Virus genome (UHGV): UHGV-0229204
Direction: 5' to 3' (one strand)
Length of the DNA stretch: 11,049 nucleotides
Source: a virus
This document shows positions 3,098-11,049 of the stretch, piece by piece (the stretch's first letter is position 1; the number at the start of each line of letters is the position of its first letter). A model generated the notes under the pieces. That model worked only from the letters and a program-made list of their open reading frames with translations, was not told where the DNA came from and searched no databases. The position numbers were made by a program, and so were the translations under genes.

Positions 3098-3685
3098 TTA
3101 TTGCTGATCTTCTGCATAAATCCCGGCTGAGATAATCGCACCGCCTATTTCCCTCTGTCCGTAAAGCAAAGGAACGGGGTTACCGGATGCCGTAGTATTG
3201 ACGGGTCCGCCAAACGCATAGGAAGGCTTATTATCTGGGTCCTGTCGCATCCTCAGACCAGCAACCTGAGGGGAAAGCATTTGCACTACACCACCCACAG
3301 CCATAGAACCAGCTGCGGCATATAGCGCCATTTGTGTACCTGCTGCCCATCCTATTGGGTTCCACCAGGTAAAAGCCGCAATTGCGGCGGCAGTAACAAT
3401 TTGAAAGAGGCCAGCCCTTTTACTGCCGCGTATTACAGGGATAATGCGAAGTTCATCGCCAGGTCCAAGAAGATCAAACTCTTCCTTTCCTATGTTTATT
3501 TGGTTTCGGAAGATGACAAAATCCAGCCCTTTCGCTCTGGTCTCGCGCAGGTAAGCATCAAAGCCATCAATGGTGTTAGAAAGCGCCCTGAACACTTCGC
3601 TGGCAGACGTTAGTGCGCGGCGATGCGTCCTGCCAAATCGCTGAGCCATTGAGCCGCTGAGTTTGATAACGGTTTTTCTTTCCAT
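3098..3685 (-). CDS. I: Tail assembly protein, lambda gpI-like
   Basis: 195-aa ORF with ATG at 3685 overlapping the K stop by 1 nt (ATGTAATGG). Contains ..QRFGR.. and a hydrophobic Gly/Ala-rich C-terminal half (..GLFQIVTAAAIAAF..GSMAVGGVVQMLSPQ..PVPLLYGQREIGG..) matching lambda gpI (..GGVFQIVLGAAAIAGS..VLGGVAQMLAPK..VLPVLYGEMRVGS..) from memory. Gene order K-I-J. Confidence 0.88.
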   Translation of the reverse strand: MERKTVIKLSGSMAQRFGRTHRRALTSASEVFRALSNTIDGFDAYLRETRAKGLDFVIFRNQINIGKEEFDLLGPGDELRIIPVIRGSKRAGLFQIVTAAAIAAFTWWNPIGWAAGTQMALYAAAGSMAVGGVVQMLSPQVAGLRMRQDPDNKPSYAFGGPVNTTASGNPVPLLYGQREIGGAIISAGIYAEDQQ

Positions 3686-5156: not shown

Positions 5157-5491
5157 GGGTGGTATGCCTGTGTGAATGTGCTGCTGAGGGTGTATTTTTT
5201 GTTGCCGTGTGTAGATATCTGAAAGGATTCCGCGCGCCATAAGCCTGATGGCTCAAGCGGCGACTTCCAGATAAATGATTTCCACCCGGCATGTCTGTTG
5301 AGAAAGTTTTTAATGGCCTGAATGTAAGCCTCATCGCCGGTAAAACTCACGCTCCATTGAGATGTTACCGGGTTGATACCATCCCCTGCCACCTGCGTAT
5401 AGCCATCGCCAAACTGTGCCTTTCGGGTACGAAAATTTGTATCAACCTGAGAGGCAACCTTTGGGCACCAGCTGAAGGTTTCTACTGTCAT
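5153..5491 (-). CDS. M: Minor tail protein, lambda gpM-like
   Basis: The track ORF starts at GTG 5518 inside the tape measure gene. The ATG at 5491 is preceded by AAGGGAG and lies 2 nt after the H stop, giving 112 aa (MTVETFSWCPKV...). ..QFGDGYTQ.. and ..HAGWKSFIWKSP.. resemble lambda M ..RFGDGYSQ.. and ..HGGWKSFLWTPP... Confidence 0.85.
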   Translation of the reverse strand: MTVETFSWCPKVASQVDTNFRTRKAQFGDGYTQVAGDGINPVTSQWSVSFTGDEAYIQAIKNFLNRHAGWKSFIWKSPLEPSGLWRAESFQISTHGNKKYTLSSTFTQAYHP

Positions 5492-5493
5492 GG

Positions 5494-8400
5494 TTAAACT
5501 CCCTTGATTAATCGCCACAGAGGCGAGCCCGGCATGCTGGCCTGTTCGTTAATGACGCCAGTGATGGCATCCTTAAGCTGCCTGCCTGCTGCTCCAGCAG
5601 TACCCTGACTGGCCGCCTGGGATGATCCGCCCTGAATATTGATATCGCCGAAGTTAACTGAAGGCATACCACCGGAGACCTGAGGAGTGCCAACAGCCCG
5701 AACGCCAAGCGAACCATCAGCGGCGCGCGTAAGCGGCATAATGGCTTCCGGACCAGCTTCGGCAAAAACCCCTGCACCTTTGGCAAAAGCAAACAGCTGA
5801 GGCGTCTGAAAAACGCCATTGCTGTAAGCGCTCAGGGACGGAGAGTCGTAAACATTACCCTTCGCATTAAAGGTAAAGTTCGCGCCAGCATTCTGAATAG
5901 CGGTACCGCTGCTGGCGGTAGCGGCTGACGAGGCACCAAAACTGAACAGTGAACCAATTGAGCTAACGCCATTAGCAACAGCCATATTCACCAGAACGTT
6001 CTGGATAATCTTCAGTACGCTGACGCCCCAGTCCTTCCAGCTATCAACGTTGCCATTGAGCATGTCGGTGATCGTGGTGACCGCGCCACCCATAGCCTGC
6101 TTCATGCCGTCAGCGGCCATGGAAGAATAATCAGTAGCTTCGTCCACCCAGTTCGCATAACCCTCAGACAGTCCCGTCATCCAGTCGTCACGCTGCGCAT
6201 CAGAAGCTGCGTAATATCCCTCCTGGTCGCGCAGGCGCTCATCGAGATAGCGCTTATTAAGTGCCAGTCCCTGCTGATAGAACGTCTCATCGATTTCACC
6301 AGCCTGACGCTGGCGGAGAAGATCGGTATTCTTCTGCTCGAACTCCTTACGCAGATTGAACTGCTCCTGAAGTCTTTCACGGAACCTGGTACCCTGCCCG
6401 TAACCCAGCAGTTGCCCTTCATTAGCTGCTCGGGCGCTGGCGTTACTGTCGGCGAGGTTGGCTTCGTAATTTCGCAGTTGCTCACGTAATTTAACCTGGT
6501 CAATCAGCGCAGCATTCTGCAATAACGTCTTTTTCTGGGCTTCTGTCAGAGAAGCAAGCTCGCCCTGGCTGACCTGGTATTTAACCTTCGCCAGTTCAGT
6601 ATTCTGGCCTTGCAGGGCAATCTGCTCTTTTTGCTGTTTGATCAGCTTGTCATAGGCATCAGCTGTTTTTTCCGCCTCGGATTTCCCGCCCTTATGGCGG
6701 CTTGAGTCACGAATAGCTTGCAACTGCCTGGCTGACTCAACTTCCATGCTGACATACTTCTCACGCCAACCAGCAGGGAGATTAAGGTCAGATGCATCGA
6801 ATTCCGCCTGCTTGCGGGTTTTGTCCAATCCCTTAAGACCGGACAACTCAAGCTGTCGCTGCGCCTTGTCTATAGCTTGCTGCTGCTTATTATCAAGTGC
6901 AGGAAGTACAGGCCCTGCATATTTTGGTGGGGACACTGCTGTAGACTGTCTGGAAACCTTGTTCAGACGGTCATACATCTCTGTAAGAGAACTTACGGCG
7001 CCAGCCATTTCTACTGTTTTATTTATAGCCTGATCAGTTATGTCGTTTATTAACTGTTGTGTTTGCTTTCTTTTATTGAGCATTTGCTCAAGTCGGCCTT
7101 CTTCAACCGCAAGTTCTGAAGCAAACTCTGCTGATTTCTCAACCGCATCGTTATACAGCCATGTTCCATCTGAAGCAGAATTGGCTGCTAATTTTGCGTT
7201 ATAAAGTTGATTGGATAATTCAGCAACTTTCTGCTTCTGCTGTTCAATCGCACTATTTTGAGCATCCAGTGAAATATTCGCCTGTCCAAGGTTGGCGGAT
7301 ATCTGCGTCTGAGACATTGATTTCAGATTATCTCGTACCTGCTCGATTGTGTCCGCATATTGGATTGCAGATTCCCTGGCTTGTTCTTGGCGTTGATACA
7401 TCGTGTACCACGCCCCAGCACCCAACATTAAAATTCCTGGCAAACCACCAACTAACGACAAAAGCCCCGTAGCGCCAGACTTGAATAAATTCATTACCGA
7501 TGTTGATCGGTTGAGTGCTTCTTGCGACGCTGATACTGCTTTATTTGACTGAACGAGAGTGGAATTGGCGGCTATCATTTCACGCCGTTTGGCAATAGAA
7601 TTTTGTGTAGCTGTCGCTTCTGCATTTGTGTTTTTTGCAAGTTCCAACTCGGATAGCGAGAGCTGATAAGCACGCTCGGCAGCAATCGCATCTGCTGCCG
7701 CCTTTCGTTGTGATTGGGTAGCAGATTCAGCCCTTGCAGATGCGAGCGCAATTTCGTTCTTTCTGGCATCTATTAATTGCGCCGTTTGGTTCCCAAGATC
7801 GCCAAACATCCCTCCAAGATAGCGAGCTCCACCTATTGCAGCCAAAGCTCCGGCAGCCGTAGCCACAGTGTCGATATTGTCAGAAACTGTATTCAATACA
7901 GCAACAAGAGCACTTGTCGCACCAGTAGCTTCATTAGCTCCACCTACCCATGCCATGAAAGCATTTTCGACTTTCGTCGTGGCAGCAGAAACGGTCTGCG
8001 GCATTGCCTCAAATTCACCACGCATAGTGCCAAGTTGACTTATCAGGGCCGGGACAACTTTATCTGCGGTTAGCATCCCCTGATCGGCCATTGCCTTCAG
8101 ATCTTTACGAGCTACACCCATCCCAGCGGCCAGCGCACGGATAACTCGATCACCGTTTTCGTTAACAGAGTTGAATTCCTCGCCCCGCAGAACGCCCTGA
8201 GCTAATGCCTGACTAAACTGGGTGATAACAGAACTTGCCTCTGCCGTGCTGGCGCCGGATAGCTTTAGTCCAGTAGAAATGGCCTCGGTTACATCCAGAA
8301 CTTGCTGCGAACTGTATCCGTATTCACGCATTGATGCGGCGGAACGCGCAAAAAGACTCGCATTATCAGAGAAGGCGGTTCCGGTTCGTTGGCTAATATC

Positions 8401-8760
8401 CATCAGCGCCCGCTGAGACTCCGTGAAATCATCAGACGATTGGGAAGCCTGCTTTAGCCTGGCATTAACAGAGCTCCATTCATCGGCCAGCGATATAAGA
8501 TGACCAGTCGCAAATGCTCCAGCAAATGCACCTGCCATTCCCAGCGCTGAGGCCTTCGCGGTGTTTATTTGACTAGTTACCTCAGCTAAGGCACGCTGAG
8601 TTTCACGCGAAGCTGCGGCCGCTTGGCGTCCTCCAGTCTGCATTACCCGGTAATAGTCATTCCCCATTCTTGAAGCACGAGAAATTTCAGACTGAAATGA
8701 CTGAGAGTTTGCAGATATTTTGATGATCAGTTCGCGCAACGTAGCCATATTTTCACCCAT
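5494..8760 (-). CDS. H: Tail tape measure protein, lambda gpH-like (1088 aa from ATG 8760; 1084 aa if the ATG at 8748 is used)
   Basis: Longest ORF in the window. Ala/Gln-rich, coiled-coil-like N-terminal and central regions, and a C-terminal segment (..NWVDEATDYSSMAADGMKQAMGG..VLKIIQNVLVNMAVANGVSSIGS..GTAIQNAGANFTFNAKG..) that matches the lambda gpH C-terminus (..SEWEESATDSMSQVK..VLSMMTEILLKQAMVGIVGSIGS..GTAIQAAAAKFHFATGG..) from memory. Positioned between G-T and M. A T8 run directly abuts the first ATG, so the second ATG (MATLRELI.., preceded by GGTGA) may be the real start. Confidence 0.92.
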   Translation of the reverse strand: MGENMATLRELIIKISANSQSFQSEISRASRMGNDYYRVMQTGGRQAAAASRETQRALAEVTSQINTAKASALGMAGAFAGAFATGHLISLADEWSSVNARLKQASQSSDDFTESQRALMDISQRTGTAFSDNASLFARSAASMREYGYSSQQVLDVTEAISTGLKLSGASTAEASSVITQFSQALAQGVLRGEEFNSVNENGDRVIRALAAGMGVARKDLKAMADQGMLTADKVVPALISQLGTMRGEFEAMPQTVSAATTKVENAFMAWVGGANEATGATSALVAVLNTVSDNIDTVATAAGALAAIGGARYLGGMFGDLGNQTAQLIDARKNEIALASARAESATQSQRKAAADAIAAERAYQLSLSELELAKNTNAEATATQNSIAKRREMIAANSTLVQSNKAVSASQEALNRSTSVMNLFKSGATGLLSLVGGLPGILMLGAGAWYTMYQRQEQARESAIQYADTIEQVRDNLKSMSQTQISANLGQANISLDAQNSAIEQQKQKVAELSNQLYNAKLAANSASDGTWLYNDAVEKSAEFASELAVEEGRLEQMLNKRKQTQQLINDITDQAINKTVEMAGAVSSLTEMYDRLNKVSRQSTAVSPPKYAGPVLPALDNKQQQAIDKAQRQLELSGLKGLDKTRKQAEFDASDLNLPAGWREKYVSMEVESARQLQAIRDSSRHKGGKSEAEKTADAYDKLIKQQKEQIALQGQNTELAKVKYQVSQGELASLTEAQKKTLLQNAALIDQVKLREQLRNYEANLADSNASARAANEGQLLGYGQGTRFRERLQEQFNLRKEFEQKNTDLLRQRQAGEIDETFYQQGLALNKRYLDERLRDQEGYYAASDAQRDDWMTGLSEGYANWVDEATDYSSMAADGMKQAMGGAVTTITDMLNGNVDSWKDWGVSVLKIIQNVLVNMAVANGVSSIGSLFSFGASSAATASSGTAIQNAGANFTFNAKGNVYDSPSLSAYSNGVFQTPQLFAFAKGAGVFAEAGPEAIMPLTRAADGSLGVRAVGTPQVSGGMPSVNFGDINIQGGSSQAASQGTAGAAGRQLKDAITGVINEQASMPGSPLWRLIKGV

Positions 8761-8785
8761 AAAAAAAACCCGCTTGATAGCGGGT
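8761..8785 (-). terminator. Intrinsic-terminator-like hairpin: 7-bp stem ACCCGCT/AGCGGGT, 4-nt loop, then T8 on the minus strand, immediately 3' of the moron ORF and abutting the tape measure ATG
   Basis: Seen directly: plus strand 8761-8785 aaaaaaaa cccgct tgat agcgggt; the minus strand reads ACCCGCTATCAAGCGGGTTTTTTTT followed by ATGGGTGAAAATATGGCT. Confidence 0.6.
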
Positions 8786-8791
8786 CGTGAG

Positions 8792-8980
8792 TTATAAACT
8801 GTCTTTTCTTTTGTGAGCGACTTGTATTAATAAATCTATTTGCGCATCTTGTTTTTTATTTATCTCTTTAAGGGCTTCAACTTGTTCATTTGCCCTTGTG
8901 CTAAACCGTATTAAATAAAAAATCACAATTAGATTTATCAACCAGCCGAATATTCCAAACACTACTACCAGTGGTTCCAT
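8792..8980 (-). CDS. Small single-pass membrane protein (62 aa) encoded by an AT-rich moron between T and H; candidate YebO-like / HK97 gp15-like superinfection-exclusion protein
   Basis: ATG at 8980 preceded by a strong AAGGAGG (4-nt spacer). Product MEPLVVVFGIFGWLINLIVIFYLIRFSTRANEQVEALKEINKKQDAQIDLLIQVAHKRKDSL has an N-terminal hydrophobic helix and a charged helical tail. Local GC is about 30% against about 52-55% in flanking tail genes. Followed by the hairpin + T8. The track ORF 8792..9037 begins at an upstream alternative start with no RBS. Confidence 0.65.
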   Translation of the reverse strand: MEPLVVVFGIFGWLINLIVIFYLIRFSTRANEQVEALKEINKKQDAQIDLLIQVAHKRKDSL

Positions 8981-9004
8981 AACGCCTCCTTTTCTTAAGG
9001 AAAG

Positions 9005-9033
9005 AGCGTATCGCCACATTGATGACATGTGAA
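9005..9033 (-). promoter_or_regulatory. Candidate sigma70-type promoter for the moron: TTCACA, 17-nt spacer, TACGCT on the minus strand
   Basis: Minus-strand sequence TTCACA-TGTCATCAATGTGGCGA-TACGCT lies in the 57-nt T-moron intergenic gap, about 25 nt upstream of the moron RBS. The -10 is a weak match (3/6 to TATAAT). Pattern-based only. Confidence 0.25.
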
Positions 9034-9037
9034 GCAA

Positions 9038-9708
9038 TTATTGTGTCGCAGCTGTAAGAGCAGCCTCAAGCCCTGCAAACGGGTCCTTCGGTGCTGATTG
9101 CTCATCACCACCCCAGCGCAGGATCGCATCGTCCAGCGGTACTTTTGCCCCCTGCGAGCCGTAGATGGCAGAGACGAGCTGGGCTGCCTGAATGTCACCA
9201 CGGATATCGCCAACCGGACTTTGCCTGTCGTACTCAATCCACATCAGAAGCTCGCTTGCCGTCATATTCTGCCGAAGCTCTGAGAGCGTGCGCCCCATCC
9301 GGAGCGCAAGCGACATCAGAAACTTTACGCCGGGGGTTGAGACTTTTCCCGCGCTTCGTCCGCATTGTTGATCAGGTCAAGCGCCTGTTTGAGCAGGCGT
9401 GAATGGACGGGGCCGTAGATTTCACGCACCTGCTCTTCTTCGTCTACGCTGAATACCGGCTGCTTATCGGTGTCACACAGAACGTCAATGAAGAGCACCA
9501 CGTCAGCGCAAAGATTACGGTGTGCCTTTTCCGATACCGACACATTTTCATCATCAGTACCCGCTTTCACCACCTCCTGCCAGCGCAGCCAGGCTTCACC
9601 TGACGGCTCACGCAGAACCACTTTGACGCCCTCCCACTCAGGAACGGCGACCGTCTTATGACGAAATCCCGACATCTTAGCCAGGGCGAGATTTTTAATA
9701 TTCTTCAT
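9038..9708 (-). CDS. T: Tail assembly chaperone G-T fusion, made by a programmed -1 ribosomal frameshift near the end of G; the T segment is ORF 9038..9351 in the -1 frame
   Basis: The downstream ORF (..MSLALRMGRTLSELRQNMTASELLMWIEYDRQSP..) is in the -1 frame relative to G, overlaps the G 3' end, and has no RBS before its internal ATG at 9316. The -1 frame is open from a TGA at 9379-9377 through the G stop. A GGGAAAAG slippery-like run sits at 9343-9350. This matches the conserved G/GT arrangement upstream of tape measure genes. Confidence 0.75.
9325..9708 (-). CDS. G: Tail assembly chaperone, lambda gpG-like (127 aa)
   Basis: ATG at 9708 with GAGAGG 6 nt upstream. Acidic small protein (..VDEEEQVREIYGPVHSRLLKQALDLINNADEAREKSQPPA) located between the major tail gene and the T frame, with the slippery site near its 3' end. 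Confidence 0.8.
   Translation of the reverse strand: MKNIKNLALAKMSGFRHKTVAVPEWEGVKVVLREPSGEAWLRWQEVVKAGTDDENVSVSEKAHRNLCADVVLFIDVLCDTDKQPVFSVDEEEQVREIYGPVHSRLLKQALDLINNADEAREKSQPPA
9343..9351 (-). promoter_or_regulatory. Putative -1 programmed frameshift slippery site, minus strand C GGG AAA AG (zero-frame codons CGG GAA AAG)
   Basis: Seen directly at the G 3' end. Resembles the lambda G GGA AAG site but is offset by one nucleotide and has an extra A. An A-site tRNA-Lys slip from AAG to AAA is possible. Confidence 0.5.
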
Positions 9709-9716
9709 GCGACCTC

Positions 9717-10160
9717 TCAGGAGCCAGACTCGATGTTTTCAGGCTTACCTTTCAGGCGCAGGGAGAACGTTGCCGCAACTACGCCGTTGGTACCGGAAGA
9801 CCAGGTGTGCTGGCGGATTTCAGCCAGGAACTTAAAGCCCTTGCCGGACGGGAAGATAACCTGGAAAGCGTAGGTCGTATCGTTGTCATACGCTTCACGC
9901 AAGGCGTCCTGCGCCGGGTTTTTGTAGAAGTTGCCGGACAGAGAGATTTCTGACGGAGAAGGCAGGCCGTTGATGTTCTCCTGCTCGGTAGAGCAAAGCG
10001 TGGTTACGTCGATATCCTGCTTCTGGCCACCAGTGAACTGAATTTCTTTGATGGTGCAACTCAGATCGAGGAAGGTTGCGGTATCCATCGTTTCTTTGGT
10101 GGCTGGCGCAGAGGAAATAAGGATCTTCGTCAGCTGCGATTTTTCATAAAGTGCAGACAT
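9717..10160 (-). CDS. Major tail tube protein (147 aa), homologous to the lambda gpV N-terminal tube domain, with no C-terminal Ig-like domain
   Basis: ATG at 10160 with AGGAGA 7 nt upstream. ..DNDTTYAFQVIFPSGKGFKFLAEI.. resembles lambda V ..[23 protein letters not shown]... Sits directly upstream of G, as V does in lambda. The stop TGA overlaps the G RBS. Confidence 0.8.
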   Translation of the reverse strand: MSALYEKSQLTKILISSAPATKETMDTATFLDLSCTIKEIQFTGGQKQDIDVTTLCSTEQENINGLPSPSEISLSGNFYKNPAQDALREAYDNDTTYAFQVIFPSGKGFKFLAEIRQHTWSSGTNGVVAATFSLRLKGKPENIESGS

Positions 10161-10172
10161 AGCTGTCTCCTG

Positions 10173-10201
10173 GTAAAAGAAAACCCGCCATTAAGCGGGT
10201 T
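10173..10201 (-). terminator. Intrinsic-terminator-like hairpin upstream of the major tail gene: 7-bp stem AACCCGC/GCGGGTT, 6-nt loop, then TTTTCTTTT on the minus strand
   Basis: Seen directly: plus strand 10182-10201 aacccgc cattaa gcgggtt. The minus strand continues TTTCTTTTACCAGGAGACAGCTATG. Same ACCCGC/GCGGGT stem core as the hairpin at 8761-8785. Confidence 0.5.
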
Positions 10202-10219
10202 CGTTGGGTGAATGATTTA

Positions 10220-10567
10220 TCAAGGTGTAACTTTAAAATCCAGGGTGGCACGGTATAGCCGATAATATGGCTCGTATCCGGGGATTTTTACCACCTCTGT
10301 AGGGTTTAACGACTTAAGCGAAGCAAGCGCCAAATCTCTCAGAGATCGTGATTCAGTGATCGTTGTGGCATACACATCGACCTGAACGGAAACCCTGCTC
10401 TCTGCCTGGCCACACATCACGTCAGCGGAAACATCATCGACGATGGAAAAGATAATCCAGGGTGGAGTGACCGACGGTTTCCCGTCACTACCTAATGGCG
10501 CAACATAGGGATATACCCGTCCTTCTGCCAGGGGAGAAAGCAAGGCGTAGATATTATCTTCATTCAC
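10220..10567 (-). CDS. Putative tail terminator / tail completion protein, assigned by its gpU-like position; 115 aa
   Basis: ORF with GTG start at 10567 forming a GTGA overlap with the upstream stop, so translationally coupled. Lies between the HK97 gp10-like gene and the major tail gene, where lambda has U. I cannot confirm sequence similarity to lambda U by eye; the function is inferred from synteny. Confidence 0.6.
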   Translation of the reverse strand: MNEDNIYALLSPLAEGRVYPYVAPLGSDGKPSVTPPWIIFSIVDDVSADVMCGQAESRVSVQVDVYATTITESRSLRDLALASLKSLNPTEVVKIPGYEPYYRLYRATLDFKVTP

Positions 10568-11013
10568 TTGCTCAATACCTCATCAATAGCCTGACTCATC
10601 CTGGCAATGGCGACGCTGGCGGCCTCTTCCTCGCGCGTATCGTAAGCGGGTCGCACAAACGGATGTGCAGGCATGTTCGCGGTGCCCATTTCTACGAATC
10701 GCCAGTAAAAGGCGTTTCTCGGGTTATTCGCCTTCATCGTGTTATCGCTGTTGCCGGTGCGCGGGTTAACGCCACGAATATGGACGCCGGAAGAAATTTC
10801 CCCGCGGCGACGGCTTTTTTGGGTCACCACCACCACGTTTTTTTTCAGTTTCCCGGTGCGCACCGGTGCACGGGCGATCACTTCTTCCTTAAGCACTTCG
10901 GCGCCGGCGCGCGTGGCATCACGCAGAACCTTGTTGTTTTCAGCGCGGCTAAGCGCCTCCAGGTCTTTTGCTATGTCATTTAACCCAGAAAAATCGAGGC
11001 TCGTCTCAATCAT
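10564..11013 (-). CDS. HK97 gp10-family head-tail joining / tail-component protein (149 aa from ATG 11013)
   Basis: The track ORF starts at TTG 11034. The ATG at 11013 is preceded by GGGGA and forms an ATGA overlap with the upstream gene stop. Product MIETSLDFSGLNDIAKDLEALSRAEN...TGKLKKNVVV...FYWRFVEMGTANMPAHPFVRPAYD.. fits the HK97 gp10-like family pattern as I recall it. Confidence 0.75.
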   Translation of the reverse strand: MIETSLDFSGLNDIAKDLEALSRAENNKVLRDATRAGAEVLKEEVIARAPVRTGKLKKNVVVVTQKSRRRGEISSGVHIRGVNPRTGNSDNTMKANNPRNAFYWRFVEMGTANMPAHPFVRPAYDTREEEAASVAIARMSQAIDEVLSK

Positions 11014-11049
11014 TTTTCGGTCCCCTGTTTGCAAAGAATTTCAAGCTGG
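11010..11049 (-). CDS. 3' end of an upstream minus-strand gene, probably a head-tail connector or head completion protein; only 12 codons visible
   Basis: Open frame from the window end reading ..QLEILCKQGTEK then TGA at 11012-11010, which overlaps the next ATG as ATGA. Far too short to assign a function; the call rests on the operon context. Confidence 0.4.
   Translation of the reverse strand, partial: QLEILCKQGTEK

Follow-up and report, generated by a model that had tools for sequence, protein, structure and literature searches.

The window analysed here, a stretch of 11,049 nucleotides (nt) of the virus genome UHGV-0229204, is the tail module of an HK97-like (Hendrixvirinae) prophage; its genes lie on the minus strand and are syntenic with HK97-type modules. 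Two hairpins followed by T-runs stand between genes of this module: hairpin 1 separates the tail terminator gene from the major tail gene, and hairpin 2 lies between the tail assembly chaperone genes and the tape measure gene. Hairpin 1 belongs to the backbone of HK97-type tail modules, and its structure is kept while its sequence drifts. A gp15-type moron cassette inserted between the chaperone and tape measure genes has hairpin 2 as its 3′ end. With a probability of about 75%, both are ordinary rho-independent (intrinsic) terminators, orthologues of the putative terminators of phage HK97, which would be read through in late transcription by RNA polymerase modified by the antitermination protein Q. 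Both hairpins are already known from the annotation of HK97 and from the moron literature; the breadth of conservation of hairpin 1 is described below.

Structure, strand and position of the two hairpins

Hairpin 1 occupies 10202-10181 (stem-loop) and 10180-10175 (T-run) on the minus strand. It reads G10202-AACCCGC-TTAATG-GCGGGTT-T10181, then TCTTTT, and the corresponding RNA is GAACCCGCU UAAU GGCGGGUUU followed by UCUUUU. The preferred stem has 9 base pairs (bp), five of them GC, and a loop of 4 nt; its folding energy is -14.3 kcal/mol (z = -5.99), and none of 200 shuffled sequences folded as well. It is located in a 59-nt untranslated gap and begins 17 nt past the stop codon of the gp11-like tail terminator gene. 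The GGAG at 10170-10167 lies 11 nt from the stem, taken in its 7-bp version ending at 10182, and 4 nt from the T-run.

Hairpin 2 has its stem-loop at 8786-8767, and its T-run ends at 8761. It reads G8786-ACCCGCT-ATCA-AGCGGGT-T8767, then T6, giving eight T altogether; as RNA it is GACCCGCU AUCA AGCGGGUU followed by U6, with eight U in a row. The stem has 8 bp (5 GC) and the loop 4 nt, with a folding energy of -13.0 kcal/mol (z = -4.71; 0 of 200 shuffles as good). It begins 5 nt past the stop codon of the moron gene, and so outside translated sequence.

A preliminary description, made from the letters alone, had reported two such elements on the minus strand and proposed RNA folding as a check on them; both elements are present and their folds are stable. 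Some of its measurements need correction. For hairpin 1, placed by it at 10173-10201 and 13 nt before the ribosome binding site, the site is right but the element ends at 10175 and the spacing from stem to GGAG is 11 nt. For hairpin 2, which it had abutting the tape measure ATG, the codon in question (8760) is the first ATG of the longest open frame; the start annotated in HK97 is the second ATG, equivalent to 8748 in the window, and it is the conserved one, relatives starting at MATLRE behind a GGAG. The ATG at 8760 stands directly after the T-run without a ribosome binding site, and gene callers that choose the longest open reading frame (ORF) would add four residues there.

Both elements have a GC stem, a short loop, a stable fold and a U tract on the transcribed strand, and both lie outside translated sequence. 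As neither has a T-run on the opposite strand, each is unidirectional and acts, if at all, on the strand of the genes. A scan of 8500-10500 against Rfam, with E values up to 1, gave no family match.

The suggestion that the two resemble rho-independent terminators within a late operon agrees with these features of the coding strand and of the untranslated gaps, and also with earlier annotation: 'terminator, putative' is the label given at these places in HK97 and relatives. In the HK97 record (AF069529.1), such a feature at 6692-6719, before major tail gene 12, is the counterpart of hairpin 1, and another at 8398-8422, after moron gene 15, is the counterpart of hairpin 2. Terminators are likewise annotated in mEp234 (JQ182732.1) and HK542, as 'rho-independent terminator', those of mEp234 at homologous places. 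Eight putative terminators are listed in the HK97 record inside the structural gene block (genes 1-J) or at its end: one follows the portal gene, another the capsid gene, two flank the major tail gene, one comes after moron 15 and one stands before each of genes I and J, while the eighth serves the reverse-oriented moron 23 on the other strand. The annotated HK97 hairpins at 3309-3335, 5192-5213, 6692-6719 and 7443-7462 lie on both sides of high-copy genes, namely protease and capsid, and major tail.

Conservation of the hairpin before the major tail gene

Conservation of hairpin 1 was followed in a scan that took one genome per species with an alignment to the major tail protein. This gave 78 prophage loci, at 37-99% identity, with 70 distinct upstream regions; the loci were drawn from Enterobacterales, Burkholderia, Salinicola, Orbus and Pseudomonas. 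A hairpin with a T-run that ends, on the coding strand, 18-25 nt upstream of the major tail ATG is present in 69 of the 70 regions when stems with at least three GC pairs are counted, and in 68 when at least four are demanded. Elsewhere in these loci a 100-nt bin mostly has 0-5 hits, apart from four hairpin positions; besides the one before the major tail gene, there are weaker peaks, of which two follow the capsid and major tail genes and one precedes the tape measure gene. A minor peak 200-300 nt upstream of the major tail gene was considered as a further element and rejected, since it consists of weak hairpins within the gp11 coding sequence.

The 68 hairpins represent 54 distinct sequences, with a mean folding energy of -10.9 kcal/mol; of the 8 nt that follow them, 6.2 on average are T. 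Their position varies little: the end of the stem lies 21.2 +/- 1.8 nt from the ATG, and the stem follows the upstream stop codon at a median of 18 nt. The gap between the tail terminator and major tail genes has a median length of 59 nt (range 45-185 nt), and the hairpin is alone inside it in the regions inspected. In 73 close relatives hairpin 1 is constant except for the loop and a few point changes in the stem. In seven divergent phages the gap of 53-61 nt before the major tail gene always has a GC hairpin and a T-run, and the stem is different each time.

Drift of the sequence has been accompanied by retention of the pairing. RNAalifold, applied to a MAFFT alignment, returns a single helix of 6 bp, with compensatory changes at all six pairs. 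In this helix 88.7% of cells are paired, compared to 68.4% in shuffled alignments, a level that none of 500 shuffles attains; the covariation score of 0.52 compares with 0.16 for shuffles and with 0.05-0.21 for slid controls.

By eye, the approximately 20 nt upstream of these hairpins (in loci L212-L289, and at 10203-10219 in the window) look consistently rich in C and A and poor in G, as in CACCCAACGA, CCCACCATAACAG and ACACCATCA. Such a stretch might prevent competing pairings with the hairpin and with the ribosome binding site.

Hairpin 2 and the moron cassette

Morons bring their own promoter and terminator (PMC3594210), and hairpin 2 would be the terminator of such a unit. The gap between the chaperone and tape measure genes is 277 nt in the window (8761-9037) and has a GC content of 0.33-0.37, in a dip over 8700-9000, compared to 0.53-0.60 in the flanks. 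In HK542, Morganella IME1369_02 and Burkholderia phi1026b the same two genes are only 13-34 nt apart. The gap holds an ORF of 62 amino acids (aa) at 8792-8980 on the minus strand (phrog_5031, E 8e-29), which encodes a small membrane protein of the HK97 gp15 type. It has the same length as HK97 Gp15, annotated as 'moron product', and is near-identical to it. In HK97, gp15 is reported to be a superinfection exclusion protein that the prophage expresses (PMC3594210).

A candidate promoter for this ORF can be read from the sequence at 9005-9033 on the minus strand, where TTCACA (9033-9028) and TACGCT (9010-9005) are separated by 17 nt; the stretch is nearly unchanged in HK97.

Exchange of cargo between the chaperone and tape measure genes

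The slot between the chaperone and tape measure genes was extracted via tblastn from 83 loci, all with a chaperone that shares at least 98% identity with that of the window. Extraction by blastn recovered 32 of 86 slot loci; the 5′ ends of the tape measure genes are mosaic. In all of the 83 loci the slot is occupied; its length is 276-553 nt, and it carries about 10 unrelated cargos, mostly small lipoprotein-like or membrane proteins. Each forward-oriented type of cargo ends in its own hairpin and T-run, a short way upstream of the ribosome binding site of the tape measure gene. The stems of these hairpins include GACCCGCU/AGCGGGUU, as in the window, AAAAAGCCC/GGGCUUUUU, AAACCGC/GCGGUUU, GAAGCUCGC/GCGAGCUUU, AACCCGCC/GGCGGGUU and AGACCCGC/GCGGGUUU.

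The sequence following the T-run (CGCCTGGAG... / CGCCUGGAG...) is common to at least six types of cargo, which places the right-hand joint of the exchange at the T-run. Across the slot loci (L126-L205 and L001-L005) the exchanged DNA is joined on the left at the stop codon of the chaperone and on the right at the T-run of the terminator. The junction between the chaperone and tape measure genes is thus a cassette-exchange hot spot. One type of cargo, of 143 aa, is reverse-oriented (L188 and nine other loci), and its left end bears a GGCGG-TAAA-CCGCC hairpin. When the set is widened to 60 prophages, 35 loci are free of cargo at this junction.

A third hairpin in the window

The preliminary description singled out two elements, but a third hairpin of the same kind is present, so that the pair is a selection from three. 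Its stem-loop lies at 3080-3061 and its T-run extends to 3054, on the minus strand, in a 53-nt gap between the I-like and J-like genes; it reads AAGCCACC UGAC GGUGGCUU followed by UUUUUAU. In a context of 41 nt it folds with -15.7 kcal/mol (z -5.64). It stands 16 nt before the J-like gene, its stem is unlike those of the other two, and it corresponds to the 'terminator putative' annotated at 15107-15129 before gene J in HK97. The gap between genes I and J of HK97 also holds the morons 22 and 23, while the 53-nt gap of the window holds the hairpin alone.

Termination, read-through and alternative roles

If both hairpins are intrinsic terminators, their action may be pictured as follows. In the lysogen, polymerase starting from the weak candidate promoter of the moron would make a transcript of approximately 240 nt and be released at the U-run of hairpin 2, and this release would keep moron transcription out of the tape measure gene. 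Hairpin 1 would most likely release polymerase that lacks the antitermination modification before it enters the tail genes. In lytic growth both hairpins would be read through by Q-modified polymerase, and they may perhaps also hinder decay of the read-through RNA. A Q protein, gp69, is annotated in the HK97 record, and this fits read-through of internal terminators during late transcription. The strongest argument that termination is the selected function comes from the survey of relatives, since the U-run directly after a GC stem has been retained in nearly all lineages.

Several observations weigh against this interpretation. The candidate moron promoter is weak: it agrees with the consensus at 8 of 12 positions, which is below the threshold of the promoter scan, and the scan called no promoter there. 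The U-run of hairpin 1 is interrupted by a C, the tract directly after GCGGG being UUUUCUUUU. A terminator before the tail protein that is most needed is counter-intuitive and is sensible only if late transcription is antiterminated; non-lambdoid relatives keep hairpin 1 as well, and so do relatives in Burkholderia, Proteus and Morganella. Finally, 16 of the 35 cargo-free junctions, in distant relatives (L212-L289), still have a hairpin and T-run, and hairpin 2 may therefore not be purely a property of the moron. Cargo-free hairpins are also found in HK542 (L210, 3714-3749) and BP-4795 (L207, 3902-3954). That of HK542, GCCCGC-GGCU-GCGGGC-U6, has a CCCGC/GCGGG core, and downstream of it ATGGGTGAAA (AUGGGUGAAA) is the same as in the window. 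Such hairpins suggest that a backbone terminator may predate the cargo at this junction, or survive it; either the terminators are older than the morons at the site or they are remnants of lost morons.

The main alternative, which we regard as unlikely, is that hairpin 1, and perhaps the others, has been selected mainly as an RNA-level expression element. It could be a decay barrier or a protective stem at the 5′ end, marking off a stable segment of major tail mRNA, or a structural insulator which, together with the single-stranded U-rich stretch, serves as a ribosome standby or S1-binding site and raises translation of the most abundant tail protein. Near-universal conservation and the constant distance of 21.2 +/- 1.8 nt to the major tail ATG speak for such a role, as does the position before a gene of high output, where termination would be counter-productive. 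So does the bracketing of high-copy genes by hairpins in HK97 (after portal, after capsid, before and after major tail), where the post-major-tail hairpin, like that of Klebsiella, has no T-run and looks like a pure RNA stem-loop. The bracket is incomplete in the window, however, which has no hairpin in the 8-nt gap after its major tail gene, and the fixed distance is the tightest packing of U-run, Shine-Dalgarno sequence and spacer and may reflect genome compaction alone. What chiefly favours termination is again the U-run: kept beside the GC stem in 68-69 of 70 lineages, it is a termination signature that neither a decay barrier nor a 5′ stabiliser needs. A broader proposal along the same lines, doubtful to a similar degree, is that the hairpin and U-run before the major tail gene form a near-universal cis-acting RNA element which sets a high output of tail tube protein, as decay barrier, 5′ protective stem or standby site and insulator, or which keeps harmful, leaky tube protein off in lysogens; a related part of it is that pre-existing backbone terminators make the chaperone-tape measure and I-J junctions permissive landing sites for morons.

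The preliminary description had also offered the pair as copies of a repeated mobile or recombination-junction motif marking module boundaries, on the strength of a common stem core with different loops. The core is indeed shared: ACCCGC-N2-10-GCGGGT occurs exactly twice in the window, against 0.01 occurrences expected, a figure which means that the hairpins are not due to chance and says nothing on whether the shared core is special. The position of hairpin 2 exactly at the right-hand joint of the exchange hot spot, and the CCCGC/GCGGG stems of several unrelated cargos of the slot, also lean towards such a motif. The weight placed on the sharing is nevertheless not justified. Of 196 distinct terminator-like hairpins in related prophage loci, 32 (16%) have CCCGC..GCGGG, more than have any other core; these are 16 of 54 hairpins before the major tail gene and 16 of 142 elsewhere. 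The longer pattern AACCCGC-N3-8-GCGGGTTTT occurs in at least 120 viral contigs, mostly unrelated; among the matches listed there are 78 different loops and only six loci that resemble the window. Enrichment at module boundaries, which the description had suggested looking for, is not borne out by two copies in the window and two among the ten annotated terminators of HK97, these two being the homologues of hairpins 1 and 2. A three-way alignment of the hairpin regions of the window detected no similarity beyond hairpin architecture: loops and flanks differ between the two elements, nor do they resemble the third. The junction at hairpin 1, moreover, has no detectable exchange of cargo. We therefore consider a mobile motif very improbable; the only part of the proposal that holds is the exchange hot spot with its right joint at the T-run. 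The three hairpins are drawn from a narrow repertoire, within which the shared ACCCGC/GCGGGT core, the commonest terminator core in these phages, is a coincidence and unremarkable.

As first stated, the finding of two hairpins carries little weight, as it rediscovers features of the HK97 GenBank record and textbook moron anatomy. The survey may be of some use for annotation: in HK97-type structural operons, terminator-like hairpins recur at as many as four sites, one downstream of the capsid gene, two flanking the major tail gene and one upstream of the tape measure gene. The one that precedes the major tail gene hardly varies in position, while its sequence is free; the breadth and precision of its conservation alone might merit follow-up. 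If it does control the output of tube protein, or silence it in lysogens, it would be a simple example of the tuning of one gene within a long phage operon.

Gene organisation of the window

All genes described here lie on the minus strand. The gp10-like gene (10564-11034) is followed by the tail terminator gene upstream of hairpin 1 (10220-10567), which is gp11-like by its matches to phrog_347 and phrog_78 and by synteny with HK97 gene 11. Beyond hairpin 1 lies the major tail protein gene (9717-10160; GGAG at 10167-10170; phrog_158, E 9e-60), encoding 147 aa. The closest proteins are those of Aeromonas phage AsXd-1 (100%) and of Enterobacter prophages (99%), and identity to the N-terminal part of the protein in HK97-type phages is 92%. 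HK97 gp12 has 234 aa (gene 12, 705 bp; L002 2041-2745), and the protein of the window is without that C-terminal extension; short and long forms are both present among close relatives. The HK97 hairpin 3′ of gene 12 is absent too, the major tail stop codon being 8 nt from the chaperone ATG.

The tail assembly chaperone genes (9038-9708; phrog_344, phrog_14766 and phrog_337), equivalent to HK97 genes 13/14, comprise a G-like part at 9325-9708 and a T-like part at 9038-9316; in HK97 the T-like part is reached via a -1 frameshift. After the moron ORF and hairpin 2 comes the tape measure gene (5494-8748; phrog_339, E 0), with its likely start at ATG 8748 (MATLRE...) in a frame that is open from ATG 8760. 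M-, L- and K-like genes lie downstream of it. The I-like gene (3098-3685) and the J-like gene, which starts at ATG 3044 and extends beyond the end of the window, flank the third hairpin.

Comparison with known systems

The nearest counterparts are the putative terminators of HK97 and the HK/mEp phages, which are like those of the window and occupy the same positions. The stretch 8400-10700 is 94% identical to HK97, mEp234, HK106, HK75 and others; the stem-loop of hairpin 2 is identical, with 7-8 T among close relatives, and hairpin 1 differs from that of HK97 only in the loop and the closing pair. The window is unlike HK97 in its shorter major tail protein (147 versus 234 aa), in having no hairpin after the gene 12 equivalent and in having no moron between the I-like and J-like genes.

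The moron was defined on HK97 gene 15 (Juhala et al. 2000, summarised in PMC3594210 and PMC2629481), and the cassette of the window is alike: a low-GC insert with a gp15-type small membrane protein and its own terminator-like hairpin. There is no difference of substance, the promoter of the window being proposed from a weak consensus match. Hfq-binding prophage small RNAs (Tree et al. 2014, PMC4104026) were considered as molecules that the hairpins might end, and this was rejected: those RNAs sit at the PR′ moron site and not in the tail operon. Our literature searches found no 3′-end mapping of HK97-type late operons and no paper that discusses a terminator upstream of the major tail gene.

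Lambdoid phages turn on their late operons through antitermination by Q (PMC2629481). HK97 encodes Q, and the window covers tail genes only; antitermination of this kind would explain how several internal terminators are tolerated in one operon.

Intercistronic hairpins that act as decay barriers in polycistronic messenger RNAs form one comparable system, and the Bacillus phage SPP1 provides another. The capsid gene of SPP1 is followed by a putative stem-loop terminator at 8775-8815, and its tail tube gene by another at 11255-11304 (PMC6316719). As in the window, these occupy gaps within the structural operon, beside the genes of the most abundant virion proteins. Unlike the window, SPP1 lacks a hairpin upstream of its tail tube gene, as gene 17 ends at 10470 and gene 17.1 starts at 10484 (PMC6316719); a hairpin at this position is therefore specific to the HK97-type proteobacterial modules covered by our survey.

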